Under the pieces are notes generated by a model, which was not told the DNA's origin, did no database searches, and saw only the letters and a program-made list of their open reading frames with translations. From the UHGV virus genome UHGV-0036031: DNA of 63,725 bases; one strand, written 5' to 3'. Both the position numbers and the translations under genes were made by a program. This document shows, one piece after another, positions 1-63,215 of this stretch. The DNA comes from a virus. Numbering within the stretch: position 1 is the first letter of the stretch; every line of letters begins with the position of its first letter.

Positions 1-286
1 CGGCGCAAATATACAATGATCCACCACCTGACCAACACCACACCGAAAATAAACCCTACACCCCCCAGCACGGCAGCTTTCCACCTTTATTTAGAACCGT
101 TCTAAACTACTCGCAGCCTGCATCGCGCACAAGGCCAGCCGCAACCACCCCACCAACCCGTCACCCGCGCCAATCCATCAGCCACCGGACAGGGGTTGCA
201 GCAGTACGCCATGCGCGAGGGCTTCTGTTTCGGGGCGTATTGCTGCAACCCGGTGTTGTGCGGCGTGATTTTTAAGCATTAAGGCA

Positions 287-41047: not shown

Positions 41048-42048
41048 GGTTCCGCTGGCCGTGGTCCCGCAAACCTAAGCCGCCCCAGTACCCGGCGCGG
41101 CGCAACGGCTTCAACGCCGCCTTCGCCGCCAACTACGCGGGCATCACCGGCTTCGTGCCGCTCCTGCGCGAGCTTGGGGCCTGCTCCCCCGGCTTCGTCC
41201 TGCGCTTCCCCGGTGGCACGCTCGCCAACTACACGCACACCTCCGGGCGCGGCTACGGCCTCGTCCACTCGGAGATCGCTAACGCACCCCAATCCATCGC
41301 AGAGCAGTTCGCCAAGGACCAATCCACGACGGCCAACCACCTCGACACGATGGTGGCGCTGGCCAAGGACAGCGGTGCGGCGGTGCTGTGGGTGGCGAAC
41401 CTGTATACCGGCAGGCTGATCGAGACGGTGGAGGCCATCGGTGCCTTCAAGGCTGCCGGTGTGGAGGTCGTGGGCGTGGAGCTTGGCAATGAGTGGTATT
41501 TGACCCGATACCGCGACAAGTACCGCGATGTGTATGACTATGCCACGCAGGCTAAGGCATGGCGCGATGAGATCAAGCGCAACTGGCCCGACATGCCCGT
41601 GGGCGTGATCGTGGCACCATCGGCAGGCATGAAGGATGCGGACAGCGGGCGCGGGAGGGCCAAGATCCTCAGCGCCGCAAACGAGGTGCTGCGCGATCTC
41701 AAATGGCCGGATGCCTACGTGCTGCACTCCTACGCCCAAGCCGCCGACCCGGCGGGGCACCGCGATGCGCTGCGCGATCATCTGGACACGTTCGCCAAGC
41801 CGGTGTGGATCACCGAGTGGAACCTCCACGGCACGGAGAACGGCGGCACGGCAACTCAGTTGATGCACTACGGCGCTATGATGGACATGCTGGACGAGGT
41901 GCCCAAGGTGACGGTGCAGACTCTGCACAACCTTGCGGCCACGGGGGAGGGGTACAACGTGGTGCGGTGCAAGGTGAGGGGCGCGGAACTGACGCGGCTG
42001 GGCGAGGTGATACTGGAGCGGAACAACACGAAGCGGAACAATGTGTGA
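41044..42048 (+). CDS. Glycoside hydrolase, clan GH-A (TIM-barrel) type; candidate polysaccharide depolymerase
   Basis: 334-aa ORF. 'VGVELGNEW' is an acid/base NE(P/W) motif. 'VWITEWN' is a nucleophile TE motif about 100 aa downstream. This is the typical spacing of GH5-like enzymes. Confidence 0.6.
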
Positions 42049-44590
42049 GAATTGCGGATGTGGACAGGGGCAGGGCGTGGTGTTCATCACCGGCCCGACA
42101 GGCCCCCAAGGATTACGAGGACCAGAAGGGCCTGTCGGTCCTGCCGGGCCACCGGGTCTGGCCGGTGATACAGGCCCCCAGGGACCACAAGGACCACAAG
42201 GCCCGGCCGGACCACAAGGCCCGGCCGGTGACACGGGACCCCAGGGACCACAAGGCCCAGCCGGGCCCAATGGCCTCCAAGGTCCAGCCGGGCCTGTCGG
42301 TCCTGCCGGTACGGGCATCAACCTGCTGGGGTCCCTTGGGGATCCCGGCGACCTGCCGGGTGGTGGGAACACACAGGGCGACGCCTACCTCATATCCGGC
42401 AACATCTGGGTATGGAGTGATGGGTCATCGTCATGGATCAACTCGGGCAGCATACAAGGTCCTGCCGGGCCACAAGGTCCTGCCGGAGCCACGGGAGCCA
42501 CGGGTGCCACAGGGGCCACGGGTGCCACCGGGCCGCAGGGGCCACAGGGTCCACAAGGACCACAGGGTCCACAAGGACCGGCTGGGCCGGGTAGTTCCTT
42601 CTCGGGAGCCTACAACGACCTGATAGGTATCCCGTCCTCCTTCACGCCAAAGAACCATGCGGCACGCCACAAGGCTGGGGGGAATGACATGATCCGTCTC
42701 GATGAGCTGGGGGACCCCACGGACAACACGAACCGCAACGCCACCACGGGGCGGCACGGGTTGATGCCGAAGCTCAGTGGTGATGCCATGAAGTACATGG
42801 CTGGTGACGGGACATGGAAACCCCTCCCTAACGGCCTTGGCGGCGGCAACGTCATGGGGCCGACCAATGGGTCCGTGGATTGGGCACCCGTGTATTTCGA
42901 CGGGGCCACCGGCCTTGCCATCAAGGGCATGCCACGGTACCTGCAACCCTACGCCCGCAAGTCGGGCTTCGGCGTGTTCGACCTTGAGGAAGTGTACGGG
43001 TTGACGGGGTACAATGGCCCCATGAAACTGAACCAGCTTTACACCACGACCGAGGCGCAGGCCAAGTTCCCCAAGCTGTTCCAATGGTATGTGGCCGCTG
43101 GCATGAGCACGGCGCAGGTGATGTCCATCCGGCATGGTGCGGCATGCGCGAACGAGGCGGTATTGCAGGGGCACACGGACGGGAACATAGGAAGCGGCAA
43201 GGTGAACTCCCTGAACACGGTGATCTGGCCACGTGGGGTATTCCCGTGCAACATCGCCGTGATGATCGACGCCGGGAGGTACATCGGCAAGGGAACCCAT
43301 TCCGTTGACATGCACGGCGAGGAGATCCCCAATGCCACGACCATCGTGCCCGACATCACCGGATGGCTTGAGCCGGGAAAGGATATGACGCCGTTCCAGA
43401 CAACGACCACGCCGGGCTTCTCCCTCTACAACTACGTGGAGGGCGGGTATGTGTCCGGGTTCCGGTTCCAGGCACCCTATGGTGGCCGGTACCATGACAC
43501 CTCCGTGCATTGCTCAGGCATGCTGGTGGCGTGGGCCGGTGAGGTGTTCCGCATCGGGGATGTGAAGATGGACGGGTTCAACGACTACGGCCTTGAGTTG
43601 ATCGGGGCCACGCCCATCCTCGTGGATAACATCAGTGTGTTCCTCAACCGCAAGGGGGGTATCGGCGCCATCGGGTCCGCCCTGTCCACCATGCGCTTCG
43701 GCATGGTGAGTGCCGACGACAACCCTGCCATCTTCCGGGTGGACAGCAACTACAACGGAACCCACGGGGCGGCTGGCGGGAACATCAGTGTGGGTGGCGT
43801 GAAGGAAGAGACGAATTACCCCGACCGGCCACCCGCGATGTCCCAGATCCTGCTGTGGGCTGACGGGAACAGCGGCACGGGTTCCAATGACGGCGCCCAA
43901 CTGAACTTCACCGCCGAGAACGTCGCCTTTGCCTACAACGGGGCATCCGGGAGACGGCACGCCGCCTGCGTGGTCAAGGGCTTCAGCCAGAATGCGGCAG
44001 GAGGCTACTCCGGTGCCAGCCAAGCGAGGGTCAAGGTCGGCGGGATGAAGGGGTGGAACTACGACTACCTGCTTCACTGCCTGCGTACCGGCAACGCATG
44101 GGCTGCACGGCCCGACTATGAGGGTGTGGGCTTGGAGTGGAATGCCTCCACCGGGACGCTGGCAAGGGGGGCGGCTGATGGTTCCGCCGGTTCCGCCGTG
44201 GCCGTCACCACGGGCGGCGTCAAGTCAACCAGCCGTCTGGCACTGAAGACAACAGAGCCGACATGGAATGATGTGGCGGCATACGACATCACCAACGGCG
44301 GTGTTCCGGGTTCCTTCCCGTCGATCACGGCCAATGATTCAGCCGTGGGGGTGGGTGTGGTCCCAGCCGAGATCCATGTGGGTGAGACGGCGGCATTGTC
44401 GGTGCAGCGTGTTGACCGGAACAAGCAGCTTCATGGCGCCGGGGCGACGTGGTATGTAGGGTATTCCGCATCCACGGGCAACGGCACCATCGCCGGGACC
44501 ACCTTCACGGCGACAGCACCGGGCCTTGTTCAAGTGAGGGCCGTGGCGGGCGGATGCACGGGTATTGGATGGGTGAATGTTCTTCCATGA
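42041..44590 (+). CDS. Collagen-like tail fibre / tailspike with C-terminal Big_2 domain
   Basis: 849-aa ORF. N-terminal '[12 protein letters not shown]'. Two long Gly-X-Y tracts: [11 protein letters not shown]... at aa ~17-95, and [33 protein letters not shown] at aa ~140-185. The C-terminal ~85 aa '[22 protein letters not shown]...TWYVGYSAS...[18 protein letters not shown]' has a Big_2 (bacterial Ig-like) pattern. Confidence 0.6.
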
Positions 44591-47272: not shown

Positions 47273-47359
47273 CAGCCGGGCCGGGTTCTGTTCTGAAGTC
47301 GAGCATGCGCCTTGGTAGCGTTGGCGTATTTTCGTGCGGTGGCTTGGCGCGTTGGCTTT

Positions 47360-47458
47360 TCGCGATGGCACCTAACACACGCTATACGGCACCCTCCCAT
47401 CGCACTGGCCCAACACGCGCCGCATAGCTCCAACGTTGGTGGCAATGCCAATTACCAC
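47360..47458 (-). repeat. Early-region composite-hairpin repeat, copy 1 (subfamily B), at the 3' end of the minus-strand gene arm
   Basis: '...CACACGCTATACGGCAC...GCGCCGCATAGCTC...GGCAATGCCAATTACCAC'. It overlaps the stop codon TAA (47452-47454) of the last early gene. It shares the CTATACGGC/GCCGCATAG inverted repeat with the copy at 62819. Confidence 0.6.
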
Positions 47459-47892
47459 TCCGTCTCTACTTCGCAGATCCATCCTTGAAGTTGTAGGTGC
47501 CTGCGTATGTAGTCGCAGAATGTAGGACATCCACCGGGCGATGCCTCATCAATAGTGACGCGGTAGGTTCCGTCCGCGAAAGCCTTCACCTCGCAGCACT
47601 TCAGGTCGCCCCAGTTGATAGCTTCTTCTTCCACTCCTAACTGCTCACATCGCACCGGGTCACGCTGGTAGAACATCTGGTCGCCTTCGACCACTGGCCT
47701 GTAAAGCGCCCCAATAAGCCGATCAACGGCCTTGTCGATCAACTCTTCAGCCGTTGTCTCAATGCCGCACAACTTCAAGTGTGCAAGTAGTTCTGGTCCG
47801 TTCATCTTGCTACCTATTGACCTCAAATCCGAAAAGCACTGCCACCAACATGCACCTATGCGGCATTCTCCCCACGCACGACCGATGCTCAC
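47452..47892 (-). CDS. Hypothetical early protein (true start likely ATG at 47805)
   Basis: The listed ORF starts with GTG inside the repeat. Its N-terminal 29 aa are a read-through translation of the repeat. An ATG at 47805 ('MNGPELLAHLKLC...') follows the conserved leader box, giving 117 aa. Confidence 0.45.
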   Translation of the reverse strand: MSIGRAWGECRIGACWWQCFSDLRSIGSKMNGPELLAHLKLCGIETTAEELIDKAVDRLIGALYRPVVEGDQMFYQRDPVRCEQLGVEEEAINWGDLKCCEVKAFADGTYRVTIDEASPGGCPTFCDYIRRHLQLQGWICEVETEW

Positions 47893-47934
47893 GCCGCAGA
47901 GCTGCTGAACCGTTCTGCGCCATGCAATTACAAC
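47831..47934 (-). repeat. Early-region composite-hairpin repeat, copy 2 (full)
   Basis: 'GAAAAGCAC...CACCTATGCGGC-ATTCTCCCCACGCACGACCGATGCTCAC-GCCGCAGAGCTG...GTTCTGCGCCATGCAATTACAAC'. The 3' end overlaps the stop of gene 47928..48143. Confidence 0.65.
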
Positions 47935-48143
47935 TGCGGACCAGCATCCAGAACCTTGTAATGGGTGACGTGCTCCTCAACGAATTGCATTCCGTGTGCG
48001 CCAAAGTGTACCCACTCAACACCTCCGCGCTCACTGTCCTGCCAAAAGGCCGTGTACTGACACTTGTTGCTTGGGCACCATACCAGCACAGCTCTGCGCT
48101 TTGGCGGCATCTTCGTGTAGTCGAGTTCAATCCAGTCGTTCAT
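47928..48143 (-). CDS. Hypothetical early protein
   Basis: 71 aa. ATG verified at 48143. Preceded by the conserved leader '...CATAGGTTGATCAAGTAACAACGAACGACG-ATG'. Confidence 0.45.
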   Translation of the reverse strand: MNDWIELDYTKMPPKRRAVLVWCPSNKCQYTAFWQDSERGGVEWVHFGAHGMQFVEEHVTHYKVLDAGPQL

Positions 48144-48193
48144 CGTCGTTCGTTGTTACTTGATCAACCTATGGCCTACTGGCCTTAACCCAT

Positions 48194-48229
48194 GAAAAGC
48201 ACGGCGCAGAACATGCAGCTATGCGGCAT
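48194..48229 (-). repeat. Half copy (left arm only) of the early-region repeat
   Basis: 'GAAAAGCACGGCGCAGAACATGCAGCTATGCGGCAT', with no matching right arm downstream. Confidence 0.5.
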
Positions 48230-48500
48230 GCCCTCAACACAGGTCCAACGCGCTCCCACCGAATGCGTCGTTTGCGAAAGCCCCCAACGCACTTGTGTGG
48301 CCCTTTCTGCGTAAATCTGTCGCGACCACACAACATACAACGCCACCGAAGCTCGGCACTTCCACCAACAGCAGTTTGCTGCAAGCGGCCCGTCTGCTCT
48401 TCGTTCGGAATGTTCGTCTGATCCTCCATGTCCGTGCTTCGTTTCAGTGTTTGTGTGTAGCCGCCTTCAGCAACCTGCGGAACGTCCGTTGGCAGCAAGT

Positions 48501-48764
48501 TTATTGAACCCACCACTCAACGACTTTACCTGTAACTCTATCAACAATACAAGCCTTTGCGACTGTATCATCAACAAGTGCTTTGTATTCCTGTGCTTCT
48601 TTAAGCGTTTTGACAGGCTCGGCAATGTTTTCAACTTTCTTAAATCCGACTTCTGTAAAGCCTTTAAAAGAAATGGTTACAACATAACGAAAACCTGCTG
48701 CCACCACCTGCTTTACAATAGCAGGGCTGACATCTATATTTTGAGCCTTTGCAATTCTATTCAT
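48501..48764 (-). CDS. Hypothetical early protein in an AT-rich (foreign-looking) cassette
   Basis: 87 aa. Local GC ~40% versus ~60% for the surrounding genome. Its leader is AT-rich and lacks the conserved box. Confidence 0.4.
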   Translation of the reverse strand: MNRIAKAQNIDVSPAIVKQVVAAGFRYVVTISFKGFTEVGFKKVENIAEPVKTLKEAQEYKALVDDTVAKACIVDRVTGKVVEWWVQ

Positions 48765-48823
48765 CTTTTGTAGGTATTTGAAAGTTAGTAATTCTAATTC
48801 ATGCCATCGTAAGCAGTCGGACG

Positions 48824-49132
48824 TTAGGCCACATTCTCAGGAACACGCTGGCCGTAGTAGTTGCTATGTCTCGCCACTTCCATCGCTGCCAAGGCATCAT
48901 CAGTTTTTCGGTGTTCTGGAAGTTTCCGCCACATCCTTTCGCACGATGCCATGTCTGACGCATCGCCCGGAAGTATCTGCTCAGAAAGCAAACTAAGGCC
49001 GTAAGCTATCGCCACAATGGAGTTGCTGCTCATGCCAGTGTCTCGGCCAATAGCACCAAACTCAACTCTACCAGTTCGCGTTGCACGGTCGGCCAAAAAC
49101 TCAACGTCTTTCAATAGCTGCTCTGTCGTCAT
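48824..49132 (-). CDS. Hypothetical early protein
   Basis: 102 aa. ATG verified at 49132. Leader '...CAGGCATTTAGGTAACAGGTAAAAAGCAAACAGC-ATG'. Confidence 0.45.
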   Translation of the reverse strand: MTTEQLLKDVEFLADRATRTGRVEFGAIGRDTGMSSNSIVAIAYGLSLLSEQILPGDASDMASCERMWRKLPEHRKTDDALAAMEVARHSNYYGQRVPENVA

Positions 49133-49256
49133 GCTGTTTGCTTTTTACCTGTTACCTAAATGCCTGAAGAGAAAAGAACGGGGCCTGACACTGCATTGCC
49201 AAAAGCCGTTGAGTTGTCGTTTGTTGGTGTTTACATGACGGAGTTGCGTATATTTC

Positions 49257-49282
49257 GTAGTTCTGCGCCATGCAATTACAAC
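49257..49282 (-). repeat. 3'-terminal fragment of the early-region repeat
   Basis: 'GTAGTTCTGCGCCATGCAATTACAAC', overlapping the stop (49276-49278) of gene 49276..49500. Confidence 0.5.
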
Positions 49283-49500
49283 CCTTCGGGAGGATCAGGC
49301 AGTCGCATCCAGTGAGTGACGTTCCCGCAACTATTGCCAAATAGGTCAGACCATACCATGACCAGTTCATCTTCGACCTTGCGGAGCACGTAGCTACCCA
49401 CTCGTACACCCCACTTCGAGTAGTCGTACATGATGACCTCCTCACCAGCCCGAGGCCGGGAGTGGTCGATCGGTATCCAGTTTTCCATCGTTGTTCGCAT
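49276..49500 (-). CDS. Hypothetical early protein
   Basis: 74 aa. The conserved box '...GCGAACAACG-ATG' suggests the second ATG (49488) may be the real start. Confidence 0.45.
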   Translation of the reverse strand: MRTTMENWIPIDHSRPRAGEEVIMYDYSKWGVRVGSYVLRKVEDELVMVWSDLFGNSCGNVTHWMRLPDPPEGL

Positions 49501-49540
49501 TTACCTGTTCAACCTACTGACCTAATGCCTGAATGCCATG

Positions 49541-49631
49541 AGAAAGCACGGCGCAGAACATGCAGCTATGCGGCATCCTCCCCGCGCACGACCGAAGCTC
49601 ACGCCGCATAGCTGCTGGACCGTTATGTGGC
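49541..49631 (-). repeat. Early-region composite-hairpin repeat, copy (full)
   Basis: 'AGAAAGCACGGCGCAGAACATG-CAGCTATGCGGC-ATCCTCCCCGCGCACGACCGAAGCTCAC-GCCGCATAGCTG-CTGGACCGTTATGTGGC'. A 12-bp perfect inner stem. Overlaps the HNH gene stop. Confidence 0.65.
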
Positions 49632-50021
49632 AGCGAAAAGACCACCGTCGCGGGTTCTAAGGCGGGCAGTACGGACATCCTCTCGCGTCTTCTTCCGGTG
49701 GCACGGCAGACAAAGGGTTTGATACCCCGACAAGTCGCAGCCTCCGCCACCGTTTACGACCGCCGTGATGTGATCGGCCTCCCACTCACGGTTCTCGGCA
49801 CCGCATCCGGCGCACACGCCATCATCGCGCTTGTAAAGCTCCTTGCGAATGGTGCCCACATCGCCCTTCACGATCAGGAACTCGGTCACGGCGGTTCTCT
49901 CGCACTCGTATCCGCACCATCGGCGCTGCCTGCCAGGAAGTACGCCTTGGCAGTAGGCGCAGCGGCCTTTCTCCCGCGTCGGGAACATGCTGTTGATGGT
50001 CATGCCTTTATTGTACCTCAT
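49623..50021 (-). CDS. HNH endonuclease
   Basis: 132 aa. 'CAYCQG...RWCGYEC' (Cys4 zinc ribbon) followed by 'GVCAGCG...EADHITAVVNGGGGCDLSGYQTLCLPCHRKKT' (HNH motif with the second Cys pair). Confidence 0.7.
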   Translation of the reverse strand: MRYNKGMTINSMFPTREKGRCAYCQGVLPGRQRRWCGYECERTAVTEFLIVKGDVGTIRKELYKRDDGVCAGCGAENREWEADHITAVVNGGGGCDLSGYQTLCLPCHRKKTREDVRTARLRTRDGGLFAAT

Positions 50022-50043
50022 GGCCTTAATGCCTTAGAACCCA

Positions 50044-50136
50044 GAAGCGCCGCCACAGAACATGCACCTATGCGGCATTCTACCCACGCACGACCGATGC
50101 TCACGCCGCATAGCTGCTGGACCGTTCTGCGCCATG
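50044..50136 (-). repeat. Early-region composite-hairpin repeat, copy (full, best-preserved)
   Basis: Outer stem GCGCCGCCACAGAAC/GTTCTGCGCC, internal loop ATG/CTGGACC, inner stem CACCTATGCGGC/GCCGCATAGCTG, apical loop ATTCTACCCACGCACGACCGATGCTCAC. Confidence 0.7.
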
Positions 50137-50145
50137 GAAATGCGA

Positions 50146-50376
50146 CTACTTGTTTCTGTCAGTCGCCACGAGCACTCCTCCATTCATCTTCCCGGCAGGT
50201 CTTATGCGTTCGACATAAGTACTATGCCGCCATCCAGTGGCGCTCGCCACAACGTCAATGTCTATCCAAACAGTTGTTGCTATTTCTCGACCGCACAATA
50301 CCCTGAGCCTGTCACGCCAGCCCAGCTTCGTGCGTGCCGTGTGCGCTACAGTGTCCCTTGTTTCTTTGTTCTTCAT
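50146..50376 (-). CDS. Hypothetical early protein
   Basis: 76 aa. ATG verified. Conserved leader '...GTAACTAAGCAACGAACAACG-ATG'. Confidence 0.4.
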   Translation of the reverse strand: MKNKETRDTVAHTARTKLGWRDRLRVLCGREIATTVWIDIDVVASATGWRHSTYVERIRPAGKMNGGVLVATDRNK

Positions 50377-50424
50377 CGTTGTTCGTTGCTTAGTTACGCC
50401 ACTGGCCTACTGGCCCAATACACT

Positions 50425-50516
50425 GAGAAAGCACGGCGCAGAACATGCACCTATGCGGCATTCTACCCACGCACGACCGATGCTCACGCCGCATAGCTGC
50501 TGTGACGTTGTACGCC
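50425..50516 (-). repeat. Early-region composite-hairpin repeat, copy (full)
   Basis: 'GAGAAAGCACGGCGCAGAACATGCACCTATGCGGCATTCTACCCACGCACGACCGATGCTCACGCCGCATAGCTGCTGTGACGTTGTACGCC'. Confidence 0.65.
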
Positions 50517-50628
50517 ACCAGAGAGAACGTCAGCCCTTCGGCCAACCGGCAGCGGCAATCCGGTACGCATTGCCAGCAACCGCCTCGGCTGACCATGAAC
50601 CTGAACCGCTGACCAATGAAATGCAAGC

Positions 50629-51984
50629 TCATGGCTTAATGGCTTTAATGCGCTCTCCGATCCACCTTGCACAGGGGACCGCCCAAGAATTACCAAGGGC
50701 CCTGTAGCGTGGCCCGTCCGGGCTTTCGGGCTTGCCACGCCACGGGATGTTCGTGTAGCCTCGCGGAAATCCCTGAAGAGCCTCGCACTCTTTTGGCGTA
50801 AGTCTGCGGACCTGCGTACCCGTTGCGGTCATAGGAAGGGCGCCATGCGAACCAGCGCGAAGCGTTTCGTGAACTTCTCCCTCGATGCCTCGGTTTGTGA
50901 ATGCCAACACTTGATCGTTCGCCGTTGCCAGTGTGAGGCTTTGATCCTCCGATACCAATGGGCCTTTGCCTCCGCCTTCCTTGCCTTCGCGCATACGCAC
51001 CAGCATCGGAGGCTCGGCACGGTGCAAGGTGTGGCACGGGTCGCCCGGTTGTGGGTTGCTGCGGTTGGTAACGCTGGTGACCTGTGCGGGGTCGAAAACG
51101 ATGGGCGCTTCGTGGTTACAGGTGAGCGACGGCGAGCCGTCGCTCACCATTTCGGCACCAGACTGACCATGTGCCATGACGACGGGAAGCGGCCTGCCTC
51201 CGCCCGTTGGCGACCCCTTCATCAGCGGACCCATAGGCTCTCCTGCCCAAACTGGGTTGTTCTCATAGTCTACTCCTTCGACACCAACTCCAGAGCTTCC
51301 CGCAGTCTTTCCGGTAGGTCCTTTCCCCGTGCCTCGGCTCGGCGCAGGATGCCAGCGGCTGCCTTCGATGATAGGAAGTAGCGCGTCGGCAACGGCCCAT
51401 CTTCCAGCACCGCCGCGAGCGAGCACGAAGACCCGCTTCCGTCGCTGGGCCAAGCCGAAGTGCTGGGCGTCCAAGATCCGCCAGGCCGCGCATCGGGTTG
51501 GCCCATCAACCACACCCGCGCCGGTCCATCCGTCCGCAGGTTCAGGGATGGGGGCTGTACGTCCGACCAAGCCTCCCAAGAAGGCGCCGAAGGCGTTGTC
51601 GTTGGTGCTGAGGACGCCGGGGACGTTTTCCCAGAGGACCCAAGCTGGCTCTCTTCCAGCAGTTGATCGAAGATGGTCGATTGCATCGGCGAGCAGTACG
51701 AATTGAAGAGTGAGGTTGCCCCTGTCATCGGCCAGGGATTGCCGGTTGCCCGCCACGCTGAAGGCTTGGCACGGTGTGCCACCGCACAGCAGGTCAGCGT
51801 CCACTATCCACGGCTCATCCTTCAGCGTAGTGAAATCGCCGTGGCAAGGCGTGTCAGGGTAGTGGTGCTTCAACACAGCGCGGGGGAACGCTTCGATCTC
51901 GCTGAAGGCCAATGGCCGCCAGCCAAGAGGCTCAAAAGCCACCGAAGCGGCCTCAATGCCGGAACAGATCGAGAGGTATTTCAT
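50629..51984 (-). CDS. DNA (cytosine-5)-methyltransferase
   Basis: 451 aa. 'LSICSGIEA' (motif I), 'GGTPCQAFSVAG' (motif IV PCQ), 'ENV' (motif VI), 'RRKRVFVLA' (motif VIII), a variable TRD region, then 'TPKECEALQGFP' and 'GNSWAVP' (motifs IX/X). Confidence 0.85.
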   Translation of the reverse strand: MKYLSICSGIEAASVAFEPLGWRPLAFSEIEAFPRAVLKHHYPDTPCHGDFTTLKDEPWIVDADLLCGGTPCQAFSVAGNRQSLADDRGNLTLQFVLLADAIDHLRSTAGREPAWVLWENVPGVLSTNDNAFGAFLGGLVGRTAPIPEPADGWTGAGVVDGPTRCAAWRILDAQHFGLAQRRKRVFVLARGGAGRWAVADALLPIIEGSRWHPAPSRGTGKGPTGKTAGSSGVGVEGVDYENNPVWAGEPMGPLMKGSPTGGGRPLPVVMAHGQSGAEMVSDGSPSLTCNHEAPIVFDPAQVTSVTNRSNPQPGDPCHTLHRAEPPMLVRMREGKEGGGKGPLVSEDQSLTLATANDQVLAFTNRGIEGEVHETLRAGSHGALPMTATGTQVRRLTPKECEALQGFPRGYTNIPWRGKPESPDGPRYRALGNSWAVPCARWIGERIKAIKP

Positions 51985-52141
51985 TGGTCAGCGGTTCAGA
52001 GAATGAAAAGGCGGCGTACAACTACAGCTTGCCGCAAGCCCGCCAAATGCGCGGGCCAGCGTCAAGCAATGCCCGTTATGGGCAAGCGAATACCCCAACG
52101 CGCAGGCCCACCCTACGCGCCGGGGGAAACGCCCATGGCCT

Positions 52142-52402
52142 TTAAGCCGTTGCGGCCTTGACCGCCCACATCGCAGCCTCTTCATACGCGGTCTGTGCGA
52201 GCGATGCCAACCGGCCATCCTTGGCCTTCAGCTCTTCGCACAGGTTGATGAGTTCGGCGCTCTTCGCCTTGATCTCCGCGATGACATCGCTGCCGGTCAC
52301 GTTGAAGTCGGTGCGTACGCGCAGTTCGCCTACCGACTTCTTTGCCTCTTGAACTTGTCCTTCCATCTTGATCGGGGTTTTACAAGGCCGCCCCAAGGCC
52401 AT
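52142..52402 (-). CDS. Hypothetical early protein
   Basis: 86 aa, coiled-coil-like. Confidence 0.35.
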   Translation of the reverse strand: MALGRPCKTPIKMEGQVQEAKKSVGELRVRTDFNVTGSDVIAEIKAKSAELINLCEELKAKDGRLASLAQTAYEEAAMWAVKAATA

Positions 52403-52492
52403 TTGCTTTGAAATTCAGAGAGCCGCCGCATAACAGCGTGGTTGTAGCCATGCAGAGCCACGGCTACAAACACGCGGCCAGTTAGTCCACAT

Positions 52493-52876
52493 TCAATACA
52501 ACGACCGAGCCTTTGCCCAAGCATTCCGGCGCTCATCTTCAAGCTCACGCACCCTTGCCTCTGATGCCTTCAGCGTCTTTTCAAGCGCCTCGATTTCAGC
52601 CTTAGCAACCTCTCCACTTCGCTTGGCGATTTCGCGGCGACCTGCATTGATGGCGGGAACAATGACGTTCACGGTATCTGCATGGGCTTCGTATGATTTC
52701 GCGCCGTGCCACCCGGCCTCGGTCCATCCATCCAATAGCTGCGCCGTCACATCGCGTATCACCTGATCGTCGCAGGCGATGTGCTGGAAAAGTTCGGTCT
52801 TGTCTTCGTCCGCAATGTTCCGGAGAAGGTCGTTGATGTCAATCACCAATGCGCCTTTTTGAATCGTCGTTTTCAT
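52493..52876 (-). CDS. Hypothetical early protein
   Basis: 127 aa. Leader '...TCTTCAGGTAACAGAAAAGTAAAC...'. Confidence 0.4.
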   Translation of the reverse strand: MKTTIQKGALVIDINDLLRNIADEDKTELFQHIACDDQVIRDVTAQLLDGWTEAGWHGAKSYEAHADTVNVIVPAINAGRREIAKRSGEVAKAEIEALEKTLKASEARVRELEDERRNAWAKARSLY

Positions 52877-53134
52877 GTTAGTGTGGTTTACTTTTCTGTT
52901 ACCTGAAGAGAGAAAGAACGTGGCCTAACAAGCCAGTATAGGCCACGAGGCGCGGCCCATACACTTGTCCGTTACCCGCCATCCGCCCCCTATGCTTCAT
53001 CATTCCGTACCCCCCGCCAGAGTGGCATCCAATCCAGAGCCAACACCCCTTGATTCTATCAATGGCGACAGAAGACTTGATCCGGGCCTTTTCTTGGTCG
53101 ATCGAGTAGTTCACTATTATAGGCTTTCGAGGCA

Positions 53135-54278: not shown

Positions 54279-55647
54279 GGTAGTGCTCCGTGTTGGTGTT
54301 CACGGGTAACGAAGGCGAAAAGGGCTGCGCCGCCAACGGGCCTATCCTCTGGGTGGACAACTCAAAAGGCAGCTCCACGGTCCCTATCGGTCCCACCTTG
54401 TTCTTGGCAATGTAGCACCGCATGGCCTGTTCACCCTTGCCCCTGCCAAGGAGCACGATGATGTCTGCGTCCGCCTCTATCTGGCCGCTCTCGCGGAGGT
54501 CGCTCATCAGGGGTGCTTCATCGGCGCCATCGCGGCGTTTGAGCTGGGAAAGTTCGATGATGCGCACATCCGTCGCCTTGGCTGCTGTCTTGAGGGCGCG
54601 GGATATGCTGTTCATGCGCTCCACCGGGCTGTCGCCGACACCCTCGATGCACTGGAGGTAGTCAATGGCGATCACCTTCATGCCTTGGCGCTTGACGGCC
54701 TTCGCCACAAGGCCGCTGACCTGCACCGACCGCAGGCTGTCCATGTCCATGACCATCAGGTTGGCCAGCCACCCCCCATTGGTCTGGGTGGCCATGGCAA
54801 GGCGCTCCCGCTCCTCATCGGTCATCGTGTTGTAGGTGATGCGTTCCACGTCTATGCCGGTGAGGATGCCCCCGACCTTGGCCATGAGCTGCGTGGCCGT
54901 CATTTCGAGGGATATGAACAACACCTTATGGCCTGCGCGTGCCATGTTCATCAGTCCATTGATGATGAAGGTGGTCTTGCCCACGGAGGGGCGGGCACCG
55001 ACCGCCACCACGCACTTCGGTCCCATGCGGACATGCTCGTCCAGGATGCCCATGTCCAGGGTAAGATATTCCGGCTGCACAAGGTCATCGGCCATGGCCG
55101 AAAGGATGGATGCCGCCGTATCGGGATCCTTGCCGGTGGGGATGGCATTGACCTCGGCCATCATCGCATTCGCTTGGTCAAGGGTATCGAACACGTCCTC
55201 TGTCTCATCGAGCGTGACAAGGCGATGGCCCATGTTGATGAGGCTGCGCTGGATGAACTTCTGCTGGATGATGCGGGCATGGTGCTCCGCATTGGCGGGT
55301 GAGGCCACCTTGTTGGCGAGTTGGCTGATGTAGAAGGGACCGCCGATGATCTCCAGGGTGCCCGCATCCTTGGCCTTCTGGACCACGGTGAGCAGGTCCA
55401 CGGGGGCACCTTCATCAACCAGCGAGGTGACGACCCTCCACAATTCGATGTTCGCCGTCACGTAGAAGTGTTCCGGGCGAAGGATGGCGGAAAGGCTGCG
55501 GGCCGTCTCCGCGTCGATCATGGCGGCACATATCACGGCCTGCTCCAAGTCAGGAGCCTGTGGCGGCACCCTGCCAAGGTCGCCGTTCCTGTGGACAAGG
55601 CTGATATTCCGCTTCTCCGGTCTCATCGTCCTGTCGGGGTGTTCCAC
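54259..55647 (-). CDS. dnaB: Replicative DNA helicase (DnaB family); likely start 55626
   Basis: An N-terminal DnaB-N-like helical region. 'GARPSVGKTTFIINGLM' (Walker A), 'VIAIDYLQ' (Walker B) and 'SQLKR' (the RecA-fold arginine finger region). The ATG at 55626 forms an ATGA overlap with the upstream gene stop. Confidence 0.85.
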   Translation of the reverse strand: MEHPDRTMRPEKRNISLVHRNGDLGRVPPQAPDLEQAVICAAMIDAETARSLSAILRPEHFYVTANIELWRVVTSLVDEGAPVDLLTVVQKAKDAGTLEIIGGPFYISQLANKVASPANAEHHARIIQQKFIQRSLINMGHRLVTLDETEDVFDTLDQANAMMAEVNAIPTGKDPDTAASILSAMADDLVQPEYLTLDMGILDEHVRMGPKCVVAVGARPSVGKTTFIINGLMNMARAGHKVLFISLEMTATQLMAKVGGILTGIDVERITYNTMTDEERERLAMATQTNGGWLANLMVMDMDSLRSVQVSGLVAKAVKRQGMKVIAIDYLQCIEGVGDSPVERMNSISRALKTAAKATDVRIIELSQLKRRDGADEAPLMSDLRESGQIEADADIIVLLGRGKGEQAMRCYIAKNKVGPIGTVELPFELSTQRIGPLAAQPFSPSLPVNTNTEHYHEDNPF

Positions 55648-56528
55648 ACTGCCTTGAGGTTGTTCAGGTCAATGGGCGCTACGGCCGGGGTCTTGTTATG
55701 TCCGTTCTGCGAGGGCCTTGGCTCCACGGGGAACCTCCACCCCTTTGCTTCAGCCTCTGTCAGATGGTCCACACACTCTTGGCCGGAGCTGTACATCTTG
55801 CCCAGCATGGTGATCGCCGCCTGCTCGCTCTGAAGGGTCTTGTACTTGAGCTTGTGGGTGATGCGCCGGTACTCCTTGAAGCGTTCCCATGCCTGCTTGG
55901 TCTGCGGTCCCGCCCACTTGGGCCATTGGATCTCGATGTCAGGTGTCTTGGATTGGCCCGTTTTCGCCTCCCCCTTTTCGATTTGCGTGGCTTTTGGGGG
56001 TCGGGCGGTACTTGGATACCCCTCGTGGCGTTTCGTGGCTTCTGAGGCTTGAATGTCGCTGAAGGTCGATCCTTTCCCCATACCCCTATCCTTGCCTTCA
56101 ACTGCATCTTCTACTTCATCTTCATCTACAACTCTATCTTCATCTTCTACGCGCGGGCTTTTTTTGGGTATTGTTTGGGTTAACCCAGAAGAAAGGCTTG
56201 GGTTTTCGGCCTTGCTGGACGTGGCTTTCGGACGGCCTCCCTTCCTGCCATTTTCCCGTTGACGCTCCAAGAAAAGTGCCCTTTCAGCCCTGTATTCCTC
56301 CATCCATGGGAGGCTCAAAAGACCATCTTTCTCGGTGAACAGAAACCCAACCCTATCCCAACCCAAACCCACTACTAACCCAAGCTTAACCCGGTCGGTT
56401 GGTCCGTTCTTCCATAGGTACATCATCGCCTTGGTCCAGGCCCCGATTGCCTCGTTATCCCCGTAGATGGGCATGAGGTCAACGAGCCTGTCAGCAACGT
56501 AAAACTGAAAAGCTGGAGGTCGGCTCAT
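55623..56528 (-). CDS. Replication-associated protein (DUF1376/YdaU-like N-terminus, putative)
   Basis: 301 aa. The N-terminal 'FQFYVADRLVDLMPIYGDNEAIGAWTKAMMYLWKNGP' resembles the YdaU/DUF1376 family. A low-complexity acidic linker and a basic C-terminus. Immediately upstream of dnaB. Confidence 0.4.
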   Translation of the reverse strand: MSRPPAFQFYVADRLVDLMPIYGDNEAIGAWTKAMMYLWKNGPTDRVKLGLVVGLGWDRVGFLFTEKDGLLSLPWMEEYRAERALFLERQRENGRKGGRPKATSSKAENPSLSSGLTQTIPKKSPRVEDEDRVVDEDEVEDAVEGKDRGMGKGSTFSDIQASEATKRHEGYPSTARPPKATQIEKGEAKTGQSKTPDIEIQWPKWAGPQTKQAWERFKEYRRITHKLKYKTLQSEQAAITMLGKMYSSGQECVDHLTEAEAKGWRFPVEPRPSQNGHNKTPAVAPIDLNNLKAVWNTPTGR

Positions 56529-56651
56529 GGCCGTAAAAGATCATGCCCCCTCACCAAGCCGCACACCGGGATGTGTCTCGCAGCCGTGGCGACGGCAAGG
56601 TTTGGGGGCAGGTTAGGATCTTTCATAGACTGCGAGACAGTGCAAGTATAA

Positions 56652-58954: not shown

Positions 58955-59746
58955 TTATTGGTTCAACAATGCCTTGATCTTGTGCATGATGTTCACACAC
59001 TCCGCCTCGCACCGCTCCAGCTTATCCGTTATCTGCTTGGCGATCTCATCGGTGAGCGTGAACGTCTTGGCGGCGTAGTAGTAGCCATCGCTGGCGTAGG
59101 TGTAGCTCCATGGGTAGATGCTCTCCTGTGAGTATTGCTCCGCCCGTTGGTCGATCAGTGTCTGCGCTTCATGTAGTTCGTCATGGTCCAGTTTGTACAC
59201 CGGCAGGCGGTCAGTGAAGTAGACCAGGTGCGCGGTGCCGCACCCGGTGGTGAGGGCCTGCACCATGATCTGCCATGCGTACATGGTGTCCCAGCCCAAC
59301 AAGGTGTCGAAGTCCCCGTCGATAACCTCGTCGGCGAAGCGCACCACGTCCACGGGGTTCGCAGGGCATTTGAGGTCCATAGTGGCTTTCCCGTTGTCCA
59401 CCAGTGCGTCGGGCGTGCTGCCGAGGTTGTCGCCGTAGGCTTGCCACGTGCAGGGGTCGCACTGCCTCCATACTTTGTTGAGGATGTGGAGCGCGGCGGG
59501 TTCCAAAAGCAGGCCACGGCGGGCGGCGAAGCCCTTGTCCTCCCCGTCGTCCATGGGCACGCCCGTAAGGCGTTCGACGGCCTTGGCGGTGATGTAGGCC
59601 ATGGCCACGGCACCGCACTTCCCGGCATCCCTGTCGGCCTTGCTGCGCGGCTGGGTCATCAACGCGCCGAAGCGCGAGGCGGTGAATCTGCCGATGCGGG
59701 TGCCGTGCCACGCTGCGCGGTCCTGCTGGGTGGGCGCGGCGATCAT
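58955..59746 (-). CDS. YqaJ-like (lambda-exonuclease-fold) recombination exonuclease
   Basis: 263 aa. N-terminal 'GTRIGRFTASRFGALM' is the YqaJ signature. '...PDALV...MDLKCP...' is the PD-(D/E)xK core. Adjacent to the RecT-like gene. Confidence 0.65.
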   Translation of the reverse strand: MIAAPTQQDRAAWHGTRIGRFTASRFGALMTQPRSKADRDAGKCGAVAMAYITAKAVERLTGVPMDDGEDKGFAARRGLLLEPAALHILNKVWRQCDPCTWQAYGDNLGSTPDALVDNGKATMDLKCPANPVDVVRFADEVIDGDFDTLLGWDTMYAWQIMVQALTTGCGTAHLVYFTDRLPVYKLDHDELHEAQTLIDQRAEQYSQESIYPWSYTYASDGYYYAAKTFTLTDEIAKQITDKLERCEAECVNIMHKIKALLNQ

Positions 59747-61931: not shown

Positions 61932-61997
61932 TCTTGCTTAGGTCTTGCACCCCGAAACCCCGCCACCTTTCGGCGCGGGGCGGCGGGGTAGGGTAGT

Positions 61998-62020
61998 GTT
62001 CTGCGCCATGCAATTACAAC
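61998..62020 (-). repeat. 3'-terminal fragment of the early-region repeat
   Basis: 'GTTCTGCGCCATGCAATTACAAC', overlapping the stop (62014-62016) of gene 62014..62238. Confidence 0.5.
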
Positions 62021-62238
62021 CCGACCGATGTTGTTACCGCTCCCGCAACGATCGGAGACACCTCGTTCAACTCTTCCACCTCTACGCCTGCGACTTCAGC
62101 ATCGTTACAACATGCCCCGAGCGTAGGTCCATCTTTAATTCCAGTGATGTCGGCAGCGGCGAACATCGCTTGTTTGGGATCGTCAGCCTCTAACCAAACA
62201 TACGCCTCAATCTTAACCTTGGCCAAGTATTTTTTCAT
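62014..62238 (-). CDS. Hypothetical early protein
   Basis: 74 aa. ATG verified. Conserved leader 'GGTCAGTAGGTTGAACAAGTAACACGAACGACG-ATG'. Confidence 0.4.
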   Translation of the reverse strand: MKKYLAKVKIEAYVWLEADDPKQAMFAAADITGIKDGPTLGACCNDAEVAGVEVEELNEVSPIVAGAVTTSVGL

Positions 62239-62280
62239 CGTCGTTCGTGTTACTTGTTCAACCTACTGACCTAATGCCCT

Positions 62281-62378
62281 GAGAAAGCACGGCGCAGAAC
62301 AGGTCAGTTGCCTCCATGCAAATTGCACCGCACGGCGGCAACTGCCCGGACCGTTGGTGGCAATGCGAATGACCACTA
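62281..62378 (-). repeat. Early-region repeat, variant copy with compensatory inner-stem substitutions
   Basis: The left outer arm GAGAAAGCACGGCGCAGAAC is conserved. The inner stem is replaced by CAGTTGCC (62305-62312) and GGCAACTG (62337-62344), an 8-bp perfect inverted repeat. It ends CAATGCGAATGACCACTAC, overlapping the stop (62376-62378). Confidence 0.6.
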
Positions 62379-62771: not shown

Positions 62772-62818
62772 CTGTTACGGGTTCGTTTAGCCGCCCAAGG
62801 CTTACATACCTGAAATCC

Positions 62819-62906
62819 GAAAAGCACCGCCACCAACACACGCTATACGGCACTCGCCAACGCACATCCTCAACACGCGCCGCATAGCTCTGTCCGTTCA
62901 GCGCAC
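62819..62906 (-). repeat. Early-region repeat, subfamily B copy
   Basis: 'GAAAAGCACCGCCACCAACACACGCTATACGGCAC...GCGCCGCATAGCTCTGTCCGTTCAGCGCAC', overlapping the stop (62898-62900) of gene 62898..63215. Confidence 0.6.
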
Positions 62907-63215
62907 CTCGAAGCCGTCGATGTTCATGCCACGGCGCATCGCGAGGCCGGTCAGGTGGCGGCTGTCGCCGATGCCGTACACACGGTGCAGGCTGCCGTTG
63001 GCGTGGGCGGCACGGACCTTGTGAGCGTCCCATTGCCCGTGGATGGTGATGCCATTGACGTGGCAGGCGCCTGCCGCCTTGGAGTAGTTTTCCATGGTGA
63101 AGAGGCAGGCGCCGTTCGTGTAGATGGTCTTGGTGTTCATCGTGTGAGGTGTTTGTTGTTCGTTGGTGAGGCAAATATAAGGGCCCGCAAAGCCTTTGTG
63201 CAGGTCCTTACGCAA
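62898..63215 (-). CDS. First early gene of the minus arm (true start likely ATG 63140, 80 aa)
   Basis: The listed start is TTG. The ATG at 63140 follows '...CCTCACCAACGAACAACAAACACCTCACACG', a variant of the conserved leader box. Confidence 0.4.
   Translation of the reverse strand: MRKDLHKGFAGPYICLTNEQQTPHTMNTKTIYTNGACLFTMENYSKAAGACHVNGITIHGQWDAHKVRAAHANGSLHRVYGIGDSRHLTGLAMRRGMNIDGFEVR

Follow-up and report, generated by a model that had tools for sequence, protein, structure and literature searches.

The window analysed here, the whole 63,725-nucleotide stretch of the viral genome UHGV-0036031, contains a composite element of ~100 nt that recurs between small minus-strand open reading frames (ORFs) at positions 47353–50520. 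The five best copies were recovered by nhmmer with E-values of 1e-41 to 1e-25, and the four best scored 102–112 bits with model R1. When a covariation model, R2, was run over the window with filters off, 12 copies were found, 11 on the minus strand and one on the plus strand (positions 173–278), each in the same direction as the genes around it; solo left arms were present in addition. Each copy is composed of a left arm ending in AAC, 3–6 unpaired bases, an 11–14 bp hairpin whose loop varies, and a right arm that begins with GTT. The repeat described in the initial annotation (at least six near-full and four partial copies) is real, and its partial copies at 48194, 49257, and 61998 are present, though the array is larger, with 12 copies plus solo arms. 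The sites and cassettes are as follows.

62814–62909, minus: site F (R2 62.6 bits, E 2e-15); left arm GGTGCGCTGAAC, overlapping the stop of ORF 62898–63140, then hairpin and right arm GTTGGTGGCGGTG
62277–62366, minus: site G (R2 59.1 bits); left arm CATTGCCACCAAC, right arm GTTCTGCGCCGTG
61994–62017, minus: solo left arm J, GTAATTGCATGGCGCAGAAC, closing the cassette of ORF 62014–62238
52906–52984, minus: site K (R2 42.2 bits, E 2e-9); left arm GATGGCGGGTAAC, right arm GTTAGGCCACGTT
52411–52494, minus: site N (R2 27.8 bits, E 2e-5), upstream of an Acb2/Tad1-like cassette (ORF 52142–52402)
51999–52088, minus: site M (R2 29.5 bits, E 7e-6), upstream of a C5 methyltransferase; right arm GTTGTACGCCGCC
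50507–52022, minus: C5 DNA methyltransferase cassette (ORF 50629–51984), with matched end arms GTTGTACGCC and GGCGTACAAC
50421–50520, minus: site A (R1 112 bits, R2 89.7 bits), apparently chimeric
50038–50137, minus: site B, the "best copy" of the initial annotation; left arm CATGGCGCAGAAC, right arm GTTCTGTGGCGGC
49536–49635, minus: site C; left arm GCTGCCACATAAC, containing the stop codon of the HNH gene, right arm GTTCTGCGCCGTG, opening the DUF551 cassette
49256–49279, minus: solo left arm I, GTAATTGCATGGCGCAGAAC
48823–48836, minus: solo left arm Q, GAATGTGGCCTAAC, carrying the stop of ORF 48824–49132
48488–48500, minus: solo left arm ACTTGCTGCCAAC, closing an AT-rich cassette
48189–48282, minus: site H (R2 38.9 bits); the real part is ~48189–48240
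47826–47925, minus: site D, apparently chimeric; left arm CATGGCGCAGAAC, right arm GTTGGTGGCAGTG
47353–47448, minus: site E (R2 47.6 bits), last of the array
173–278, plus: site P (R2 27.9 bits, E 2e-5), opening a methyltransferase cassette (ORF 287–814)
173–840, plus: that methyltransferase cassette including site P; right arm GTTGTGCGGCGTG (255–267), solo left arm CATGCCGCACAAC (828–840)

The AAC and GTT triplets are unchanged in every one of 53 distinct copies. In a set of 57 distinct copies, drawn from the window and from ~35 metagenome contigs, pairing is seen in 92.5% of inner-stem cells, and changes on both sides are seen at 14 of 14 pairs; none of 500 shuffles reached these values, and slid controls gave 22–43%. 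Since most metagenome copies were fetched with an 18-mer from one right-arm type, arm-type frequencies in this set are biased. The inner stem carries a bulge in at most two of the 57 copies, the unpaired spacer is asymmetric (3–6 nt versus 1–4 nt), and the arms are 13–14 nt long. G.T pairs in the stems outnumber A.C pairs by 166 to 20, the favoured strand being the "bottom" strand in chromosomal arrays. The consistent fold proposed for the copies holds for the inner stem, while the outer stem does not covary. In site B, the 12-bp inner stem is supported, albeit with a G.G mismatch, and the right arm is GTTCTGTGGC rather than GTTCTGCGCC as first given. The pyrimidine-rich GTGCTTTYC tail was confirmed, whereas the stop-codon segment ascribed to every copy, GTAATTGCATGG, is found in some copies only.

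The proposed 10–13 bp outer stem is not under selection as a stem: across the hairpin, the Watson–Crick fraction at variable arm positions is 0.42, versus 0.46 for random pairing, and only AAC/GTT is invariant. Across the cassette, in contrast, this fraction is 0.87, versus 0.44–0.55 for permuted arms, a value reached by none of 20000 permutations. The across-cassette match involves at least eight arm types and is seen in 10 of the 11 window cassettes tested (nine of the ten minus-strand cassettes, and the methyltransferase cassette on the plus strand). The right arm of site F matches the left arm of site G across a DUF7448 cassette, the right arm of K matches the left arm of N with two mismatches, and the right arm of M, GTTGTACGCCGCC, matches the left arm of A, GGTGGCGTACAAC, 1.5 kb apart. 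Site A has its left arm from the methyltransferase cassette and its right arm, GTTCTGCGCCGTG, from the next cassette. Across the HNH cassette (ORF 49623–50021), the arms that match are the right one of B and the left one of C, and site D has a left arm matching the right arm of H and a right arm matching the left arm of E. The arms of the plus-strand cassette match with one mismatch, and their type occurs nowhere else in the window. Judged from sequence, arms that match over genes but not over hairpins are the mark of chimeric attC sites that circular cassettes leave behind; the arms would match in this way because each array site combines parts of two neighbouring cassettes.

The hairpin core varies independently of the left and the right arm, which is unexpected from a single crossover point. 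Site G, for example, has a different inner hairpin (GGGCAGTTGCC/GGCAACTGACC) in an unchanged frame, and this hairpin type is present in at least seven contigs with seven different left arms. Site H is reduced to its right arm and the hairpin half next to it, the upstream ORF 48169–48429 reading through it; from the loop onward, it is 95% identical to a site in viral contig L002. Site E has no gene after it and is devoid of the U-rich tail and leader.

When contexts are compared, their homology ends precisely at AAC or GTT, as seen in ~10 solo left arms. In solo arm J, homology to other copies ends exactly after AAC, and an ordinary GC hairpin with a TTT terminator lies 3' of it (61950–61988). 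In solo arm I, AAC is followed by a conserved non-hairpin module, TACGAAATATACGCAACTCC, also found 3' of AAC in eight other contigs, and a right-arm-like GTCAGGCCCCGTTC is located at 49176–49189. Directly after solo arm Q comes the AT-rich foreign cassette (ORF 48501–48764), which is also present in contig L116 (92% identity) behind a different left arm; there, its closing arm ACTTGCTGCCAAC is next to a complete hairpin site. Two other contigs, L047 and L103, share 98.9% identity starting at (T)GTT, and similarity between L056 and L124 ends at AAC. The C5 methyltransferase cassette is common to the otherwise unrelated L002, with homology limited to window positions 52037–50505 (blastn and blastp). 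The DUF551 cassette is also found in L093 (93% identity), where the hairpin loop and left arm differ. In Polaribacter phage P12002L, R2 family members flank methyltransferase genes (E 3e-6), and one of the matches is the site published as P12002L_attC1, earlier predicted to be an attC site (PMC9892861). This sole experimentally tested member of the family did not recombine with IntI1 (PMC9892861).

The phage cassettes contain methyltransferases (ORF 50629–51984, C5 DNA methyltransferase, PHROG phrog_116, E 1e-78; ORF 287–814, phrog_799), an Acb2/Tad1-like protein (ORF 52142–52402, Pfam PF24729, E 6e-14), an HNH endonuclease (ORF 49623–50021, PF01844), and DUF551 proteins (ORF 49276–49500, E 1e-7). 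Counter-defence genes are probably among them.

Members of the same site family also occur in Flavobacteriales chromosomes, immediately downstream of a Xer-like tyrosine recombinase. Among six Flavobacteriales strains whose recombinase is identical, no sequence difference is seen up to ...CCCACTAGTT, after which the region is variable and carries different cassettes. The divergence of the six strains after ...CTAGTT therefore places an attI junction at G|TT; the recombinase gene lies 100 nt upstream of it, and an array of the same site family lies beyond. R2 matches in 10 chromosomal loci from four species are mostly inside the variable region; those with E < 0.01 are all on one strand and, with one exception (L181, 20517–20672), all in that region. 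The arm of the first cassette is always matched by an arm at the far end. Chromosomal cassettes include the defence systems Gabija (ends GTTGGCTGT and ACAGCCAAC) and GmrSD, and the sites are antisense to the cassette genes. The recombinase scores 235 bits against a cutoff of 220 for NCBIfam "tyrosine recombinase/integron integrase", and is devoid of the IntI-specific domain (19 residues versus 62 in VchIntIA). Its similarity to XerA/XerC equals that to IntI, so that it could be a housekeeping Xer.

These comparative sequence data suggest, with a probability of roughly 80%, that the repeats are attC-like structure-specific recombination sites, and that the region represents an integron-type array of cassettes, lacking an integrase (CALIN), in a phage. 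The array would be carried in the early region of a phage whose host is probably a member of the Flavobacteriales. A cassette would start with a GTT arm on one side of its gene and end with the matching AAC arm on the opposite side; when free and circular, it would have one site with both arms pairing perfectly, and after insertion each site of the array would become chimeric, derived from two neighbouring cassettes. The folding strand would be the integron "bottom" strand, which in the phage would also be the coding strand, opposite to the situation in chromosomal cassettes. Pfam and PHROGs searches of the window yielded no recombinase gene, so the enzyme, presumably encoded outside the window, must act in trans; the candidate would be a Xer-like tyrosine recombinase of the host.

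The relation to integron attC sites and CALINs, including those of virulent phages (Cury et al. 2016, PMC4889954; Qi et al. 2023, PMC9892861), extends to several features. Small cassettes are arranged in tandem in one orientation with imperfect palindromes between them; the conserved AAC and GTT mark the inner end of the outer (R) box; an unpaired spacer, inner stem, and variable terminal loop are present; one strand is favoured for folding; sites are chimeric, so that the two ends of each cassette match; the attI junction at G|TT lies beside a tyrosine recombinase; and methyltransferase cassettes are found, as in phage CALINs. Unlike attC, the sites have no extrahelical bases, their arms are 13–14 nt with a fixed G.T position, compared to the 7-bp R box, and the RYYYAAC/GTTRRRY consensus is matched in some copies only. 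Unlike in integrons, the associated recombinase has no IntI-specific domain and is in the same orientation as the array, and the phage ORFs are on the bottom strand. At least 12 sites are present in this genome, versus 2–4 reported per phage. The validated attC sites of phage TJE1 were undetected by model R2. The initial annotation ranked attC/CALIN second among analogies and discounted it for missing R''/R' cores; the analogy is supported and its lower rank is not, because the core-defining AAC and GTT never vary, the two ends of a cassette have matching arms, and a recombinase with an attI junction lies beside the family.

Similarities to Xer systems can also be recognized. The attP site of CTX phage is a folded single strand that serves as a Xer-dependent substrate, and pdif modules of Acinetobacter plasmids are discrete gene modules between recombinase sites. 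In dif-type sites, a 6-bp core is flanked by 11-bp arms and a long hairpin is lacking, and neighbouring pdif sites alternate in orientation. The sites described here would share with these systems a Xer-type tyrosine recombinase, without an IntI domain, that acts on short inverted arms; unlike pdif, they all point in the same direction, and, unlike in Xer systems, their crossover triplets are AAC/GTT.

It is unlikely that the element acts primarily as RNA, either as an intercistronic hairpin with a U-tract that terminates or attenuates early transcription, or as an RNase III-type site for processing or stabilisation, in which the arm pairs around each cistron would form processing stems like those of rRNA operons. 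The 12 window copies and those of P12002L are all on the same strand as their flanking genes, the sense strand has far more G.U than A.C pairs, a U-rich tract follows the right arm in both 60% and 30% GC genomes, a short CTTTTC-type tail is also found on ordinary terminators of the window, and the total helix is ~two turns with an internal loop, as in the RNase III sites of phage T7. However, a sense-strand RNA function cannot explain conservation, because chromosomal sites are antisense to cassette genes, and the invariant AAC/GTT, the breakpoints exactly there, and the attI junction are left unexplained. Seven serial sites in 3.2 kb cannot be efficient terminators, no promoter consensus was found at or between sites, and some copies leave only ~13–25 nt to the next ATG (~13 nt in one case).

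Even less probable is a regulatory boundary akin to the T4 PeSL, i.e., intergenic homology used in general recombination (e.g., by a RecE/YqaJ-like exonuclease) with no site-specific enzyme. The concept is published: the T4 PeSL combines a terminator stem-loop with a sigma-70 early promoter and works through homology (PMC2839356, PMC4122927). As in T4, conserved composite intergenic motifs surround small variable early genes and mark insertion/deletion boundaries between related phages. The phage encodes a RecE/YqaJ-type exonuclease (58955–59746) and a VRR-NUC nuclease, some breakpoints are within hairpins (site H; the L002 site upstream of the methyltransferase), and loops and stems are exchangeable independently. 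Homologous exchange nevertheless leaves the inverted-repeat arms matched across each gene and the unvarying AAC/GTT unexplained; many left-arm/hairpin combinations are joined over only 5–8 nt of shared sequence, and six strains diverge at one exact base beside a recombinase gene. Unlike the T4 PeSL, this family has cassette-specific inverted-repeat arms and a recombinase platform. The choice of the PeSL as the best analogue is also at odds with the lack of a promoter motif, the short distance to the next ATG, and the breakpoints at fixed triplets. Non-autonomous, transposase-moved units with 13-nt terminal inverted repeats (GTT...AAC) and hairpins as preferred targets would account for the inverted repeat that each gene has around it, and a TnpB/OrfB_IS605 gene is present on one element-bearing contig (L048), but such units are highly improbable given the absence of target-site duplications and of a consistently linked transposase, the tandem arrangement with one hairpin between neighbours, and the chromosomal start at one fixed junction by a tyrosine recombinase.

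The integron-like cassette array leaves room for a role in RNA. Since the sites are transcribed as stable hairpins with a U-rich tract, a probable further effect is the attenuation or punctuation of early transcripts; the terminator, RNase site, and put/nut functions proposed initially may be side effects. The view of a recombinogenic element that bounds gene cassettes and leaves partial copies, rather than a simple terminator, was borne out. Such an array would enable the phage to gain, lose, and swap accessory genes as units, probable counter-defence genes included.

A composite element recurs between the small ORFs of the minus-strand gene block at 47.3–50.5 kb of the window. A profile built from six copies recovered those six with E values of 1e-41 to 1e-25, together with weaker copies at 62.8 kb, at 47.4 kb and around position 250 of the plus strand. 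An unfiltered run of a covariance model built on all copies (R2) found 12 copies in the window, 12/12 of them on the strand of the flanking genes. Both searches thus confirm the repeat reported in the initial annotation; the interval 47360–50516 to which it had been assigned does hold copies, but the array reaches beyond it. Left arms standing without a hairpin (solo arms) were also observed.

Left-arm-only remnants in the window
49256–49279, minus strand, left-arm-only remnant
61994–62017, minus strand, left-arm-only remnant
48823–48836, minus strand, left-arm-only remnant
48488–48500, minus strand, left-arm-only remnant

The whole window was without a match in Rfam at the gathering threshold. 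No match in the phage database was obtained by blastn of the region or by tblastn of the portal protein, which indicates that the virus has no close cultured relative.

The fold was evaluated on an alignment made with a second covariance model (R1; 68 matches, 57 of them distinct). In the 57 distinct copies, 92.5% of inner-helix cells were paired and 14/14 pairs varied on both sides; 0/500 shuffles reached the observed values, and slid controls gave 22–43%. The inner stem proposed initially is thus supported by covariation across copies, and more than 10 different stem sequences occupy the same frame. Two other details did not survive, or survived in part: the right arm of the supposedly best copy (50044–50136), claimed to be GTTCTGCGCC, is actually GTTCTGTGGC, and the GTAATTGCATGG segment said to overlap the stop codon in each copy is present in some copies but absent from others. 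The AAC before the hairpin and the GTT after it, which correspond to the R'' and R' triplets at the inner end of the R box of attC sites, are invariant (53/53 distinct copies), and are found as well in the phage and chromosomal copies described below. As in integron attC sites, the fold is bipartite, with outer arms, an unpaired spacer of 3–6 nt on one side and 1–4 nt on the other, an inner helix of 11–14 bp, and a loop of ~7 to >100 nt. How large the terminal loop can become is shown by contig L065 (4976–5126), where ~90 nt closed by GCCCCAC/GTGGGGC, with a possible mini-ORF, is inserted in the apical loop. The core consensus RYYYAAC/GTTRRRY is fitted by GCCTAAC, ACCTAAC, GTTAGGC, and GTTAGGT, but not by the commonest arm type, GCAGAAC/GTTCTGC.

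The two strands of the element are not equivalent. G.T pairs outnumber A.C pairs by 166 to 20, an excess that argues for selection on one strand and not on a symmetric cruciform. With respect to attI and to the cassette genes of the chromosomes, the G.T-favoured strand is the “bottom” one. Two G.T (G.U) wobbles, at arm position 11 and at the top of the inner stem (columns 4–181 and 35–150 of alignment A3), are kept in ~90% of copies, including those of the 30% GC phage P12002L; one arm position always has a G on the right and a T on the left (CGTG vs. CATG). The conserved wobbles make the two arms non-equivalent, and they may replace the role of the extrahelical bases of canonical attC sites. 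In canonical sites, such L-box bases determine the choice of strand and are contacted by IntI. They were not apparent in the aligned copies, at most 2 of 57 of which use the only two insert columns within the inner helix. By eye, attC aadA7 and both sites of phage TJE1 have one or two additional bases in the L'' half (PMC9892861, Table S3).

The outer arms behaved differently across a hairpin and across a cassette. Across a hairpin, 13-nt arms pair at 0.42 vs. 0.46 for random, and the outer stem was ruled out as a real RNA helix because this pairing is at the random level. Across a cassette, the two arms that enclose one gene, a right arm 5' of it and a left arm 3' of it, are reverse complements of each other, with a match of 0.87 vs. 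0.44–0.55 for permuted arms (0/20000 permutations reached it, also with the commonest arm type excluded). In the window, the match is seen in 9/10 cassettes on the minus strand and in the methyltransferase cassette on the plus strand, which has a unique arm type; it also holds in chromosomal arrays. This is the relationship expected if a cassette was once a circle with one paired-arm site and crossover took place between the arms. Chimeric attC sites in integrons arise via such circular cassettes (PMC4889954).

Cassette boundaries are sharp. Many unrelated sequences follow the conserved left arm, starting exactly after AAC; a cassette common to contigs L047 and L103 is 98.9% identical and begins at (T)GTT, and several other contig pairs have a single common cassette ending at AAC. 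The earlier suggestion that the element is recombinogenic is supported. Neither arm is linked to a particular hairpin core, an independent assortment that one crossover point leaves unexplained and that may reflect the use of both strands, extra homologous exchange, or another process. An AT-rich cassette in the window (48501–48764, minus strand; an 87-aa ORF in a genome of ~60% GC) looks foreign and recently acquired; the same cassette, 92% identical, is found in contig L116 with another left arm.

Searches outside the window were carried out with several probes. A right-arm 18-mer retrieved ~35 metagenome contigs with true copies, a sample biased by the probe, since at least one copy on each contig must have the right-arm type of the 18-mer; the same 18-mer gave chance matches only in a genome collection. 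One IMG/VR contig carried the element. It has only the methyltransferase cassette and the elements in common with the window, and the shared block runs from the right half of one hairpin to the AAC of the next left arm. Syntenic relatives sought in IMG/VR via the methyltransferase and DnaB were limited to distant or unrelated phages. On one element-bearing contig, a TnpB-like gene (L048, 3585–4532; OrfB_IS605 and a Cas12f-like TNB domain) adjoins a gene for a YqaJ-like exonuclease.

In Polaribacter phage P12002L, methyltransferase and Mom-like genes are flanked by four intergenic sites that R2 recognizes (E 3e-6 to 0.03). One of them (29993–30066 of locus L172) is the site published as P12002L_attC1, with which IntI1 gave no recombinants, in contrast to the attC2 site beside it (PMC9892861). 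Two weaker matches lie just upstream of methyltransferase genes in Cellulophaga phage phi12:1, and one of these has a loop sequence in common with a P12002L site. With these members, the family spans phages of 30% to 60% GC. R2 gave no match to the attC sites of phage TJE1, which have been validated experimentally. A surrogate attC model from five published sites (alignment A4) was dropped because the PH101 L-box alignment was unreliable, and direct feature comparison and the R2 control on TJE1 were used instead.

One of the probe-retrieved contigs, L124, is a Flavobacteriales chromosome fragment, in which a tyrosine recombinase gene lies 99 nt from an array. Six strains with an identical recombinase gene are the same for 100 nt past its stop codon, to ...CCCACTAGTT; the match at attI is identical through ...ACTAGTT and is then lost. 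Beyond GTT, the strains differ (GTT|ATGGG, AGCGG, CTGCG, GGCAG) and carry different genes until a conserved 267-aa gene is reached. The junction motif GAAATAAACC-N12-ACAACCGACTA|GTT is common to three further species, with recombinases 64–78% identical. In ten loci, R2 matches fell mostly within the variable region, and all but one of those with E <0.01 were inside it; the outlier (L181, 20517–20672) lies ~9 kb downstream. These matches share a single strand and lie at the 3' ends of cassette genes, which the opposite strand encodes. In every case, the arm next to the junction fits the one that closes the first cassette. The locus is thus an integron-like platform, comprising a recombinase, an attI with crossover at G|TT, and a variable array. 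One cassette, between GTTGGCTGT and ACAGCCAAC, consists of a Gabija pair (OLD-TOPRIM and UvrD).

Cargo of the Flavobacteriales arrays
L183, 12500–16252, Gabija-like OLD-TOPRIM and UvrD
L181, 13384–20308, two GmrSD genes with a WYL protein
L175, 11306–12184, Macro-domain protein

These cassettes indicate that the host array stores defence genes. Phage ORFs lie on the G.T-favoured strand, the reverse of chromosomal cassettes. One chromosome (L176) also carries reversed, phage-type cassettes, one of which has 80% identity with a cassette of the phage-type contig L056; the site and leader region of the latter are common to contig L119. No cassette ORFs common to the window and the ten chromosomal loci were found; site and leader sequence alone match. 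Directly after the AAC of solo left arms, a non-hairpin module, TAGGAAATATAC(G/C)CAACTCC...ACAAACG, was observed at 49208–49259 of the window and in eight metagenome contigs (L047, L059, L093, L103, L104, L116, L124, and L129). Read on the other strand, the module ends ...CTA|GTT, resembling the chromosomal attI, and it could be a phage-borne attI-like site.

In place of the additional IntI-specific domain, which lies near patch III, the chromosomal recombinase (392 aa) has 19 residues, vs. 62 in VchIntIA (2a3v alignment). It scored below the cutoff of the integron-integrase model TIGR02249 (213 bits; cutoff 265) and above that of the XerA/integron-integrase model NF040815 (235 bits; cutoff 220). 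Among 56 ORF translations from the window, no tyrosine recombinase or integrase was found with Pfam and PHROGs.

The window itself looks like a tailed phage, with genes for a portal, a crAss-type muzzle-like protein, an amidase, a DnaB helicase, and a RecE/YqaJ-like exonuclease. A 3507-aa ORF (21968–32491, plus strand) encodes a polyvalent protein with ddrB-ParB, LPD1, and LPD5 domains and no match among solved structures; N4-like hairpin promoters, considered because of this ORF, were dropped once it was recognized as a polyvalent protein. The 849-aa ORF at 42041–44590, which contains collagen-like Gly-X-Y repeats (42092–42594, plus strand), is probably a tail fibre. Most genes have no Shine-Dalgarno sequence, and leaders are A/C-rich. 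The motif TATATTTG precedes the first minus-strand gene and occurs only at 63172–63179 and 6–13 (minus strand), near both window ends; it fits the pattern TAnnTTTG, which we take to be the Bacteroidota −7 promoter element, and points to a Bacteroidota host. Non-coding positions 63220–63725 fall between the two motifs if the genome is circular or terminally redundant.

The accessory genes between elements encode a C5 methyltransferase, a second methyltransferase, an Acb2/Tad1-like protein, an HNH endonuclease, two DUF551 proteins, and a DUF7448 protein, along with several ORFs without a match. The 86-aa Acb2/Tad1 ORF (52142–52402, minus strand; hairpin domain PF24729, E 6e-14) forms its own cassette between two sites, and may encode an anti-CBASS or anti-Thoeris sponge. 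A second, inner inverted repeat of 22–24 nt (51976–51999 and 50601–50624, minus strand), also seen in contigs L001 and L002, directly flanks the C5 methyltransferase ORF; of its two halves, CTGAACCGCTGACCAATGAAATAC spans the ATG and GCATTTCATTGGTCAGCGGTTCAG lies just past the stop. In L002, the same frame encloses an unrelated N6/N4 methyltransferase, as if ORFs were swapped within a fixed cassette frame.

Of the two analogies drawn initially, the discounted one, with integron attC sites, proved to be right, while the favoured one, with T4 PeSL, is only a loose parallel. In T4 PeSL, a host-type early promoter lies just downstream of the stem-loop, and this feature is absent here: sigma-70-like sites occur in the window at chance level, with 0 inside elements, as does TAnnTTTG (9 seen vs. 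9.0 expected; 0 inside elements). In some copies, ~13–25 nt separate the element from the ATG. Set beside an intrinsic terminator, in which a U-run directly adjoins a GC-rich stem, the element has a tract of U3-4 (high GC) or U5-6 (P12002L) after the right arm; however, the adjoining arm usually has no cross-hairpin partner, and loops are large. A transcribed hairpin with its U-tract may modulate phage early expression. Outside the cassette arrays, a large hairpin of another kind, with TTTT after it and no match to the model, lies directly upstream of the ATG of ORF 55623–56528 (56529–56651, minus strand).

The likeness to integron attC consists in the AAC/GTT cores, the bipartite fold, and the chimeric sites. 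The likeness to a complete integron, a tyrosine recombinase beside an attI with insertion at G|TT, is found in Flavobacteriales chromosomes and not in the window, whose 12 model matches and solo arms fit the definition of a CALIN (two or more close attC sites, no integrase nearby). The sites differ from those of canonical integrons in having no extrahelical bases, and the recombinase in having no IntI-specific domain. It is coherent that the bases are missing together with the domain that binds them, and their joint absence means that this is not a canonical integron. Judged from its sequence, the window array is an integron-like cassette array in a phage, linked to a non-canonical platform on chromosomes of the probable host group. 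The neighbouring Xer-like enzyme would be the recombinase of these sites and would act in trans on phage DNA. In integrons, the bottom strand folds and recombines, and here, too, the bottom strand would be the substrate.

In a broader reading, to which we assign a probability of roughly 45%, Flavobacteriales and their phages share one non-canonical integron system, in which the Xer-like recombinase has no IntI domain and the attC-like sites have no extrahelical bases. Bacteria would stockpile defence cassettes (Gabija, GmrSD, Macro), phages, with genes on the opposite strand, would stockpile counter-defence (methyltransferases, the Acb2/Tad1-like sponge), and cassettes would move between both. 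The attI (...GAAATAAACCACATATAGCGTCTACCCACTAGTT), attC sequences, and candidate enzyme are already available for a direct recombination assay.

If true, this would provide a site-specific mechanism of phage mosaicism, by which a lytic phage exchanges its accessory and counter-defence genes unit by unit, with no need for general recombination. Phage gene arrays would be connected with a platform on the host chromosome where defence systems are kept, and host and phage would then share one exchange system in their arms race. Recombination of the integron type may be possible without the IntI-specific domain and the extrahelical bases, the features by which integrons are defined and detected; if so, current detection tools would miss a whole class in Bacteroidota and their phages.
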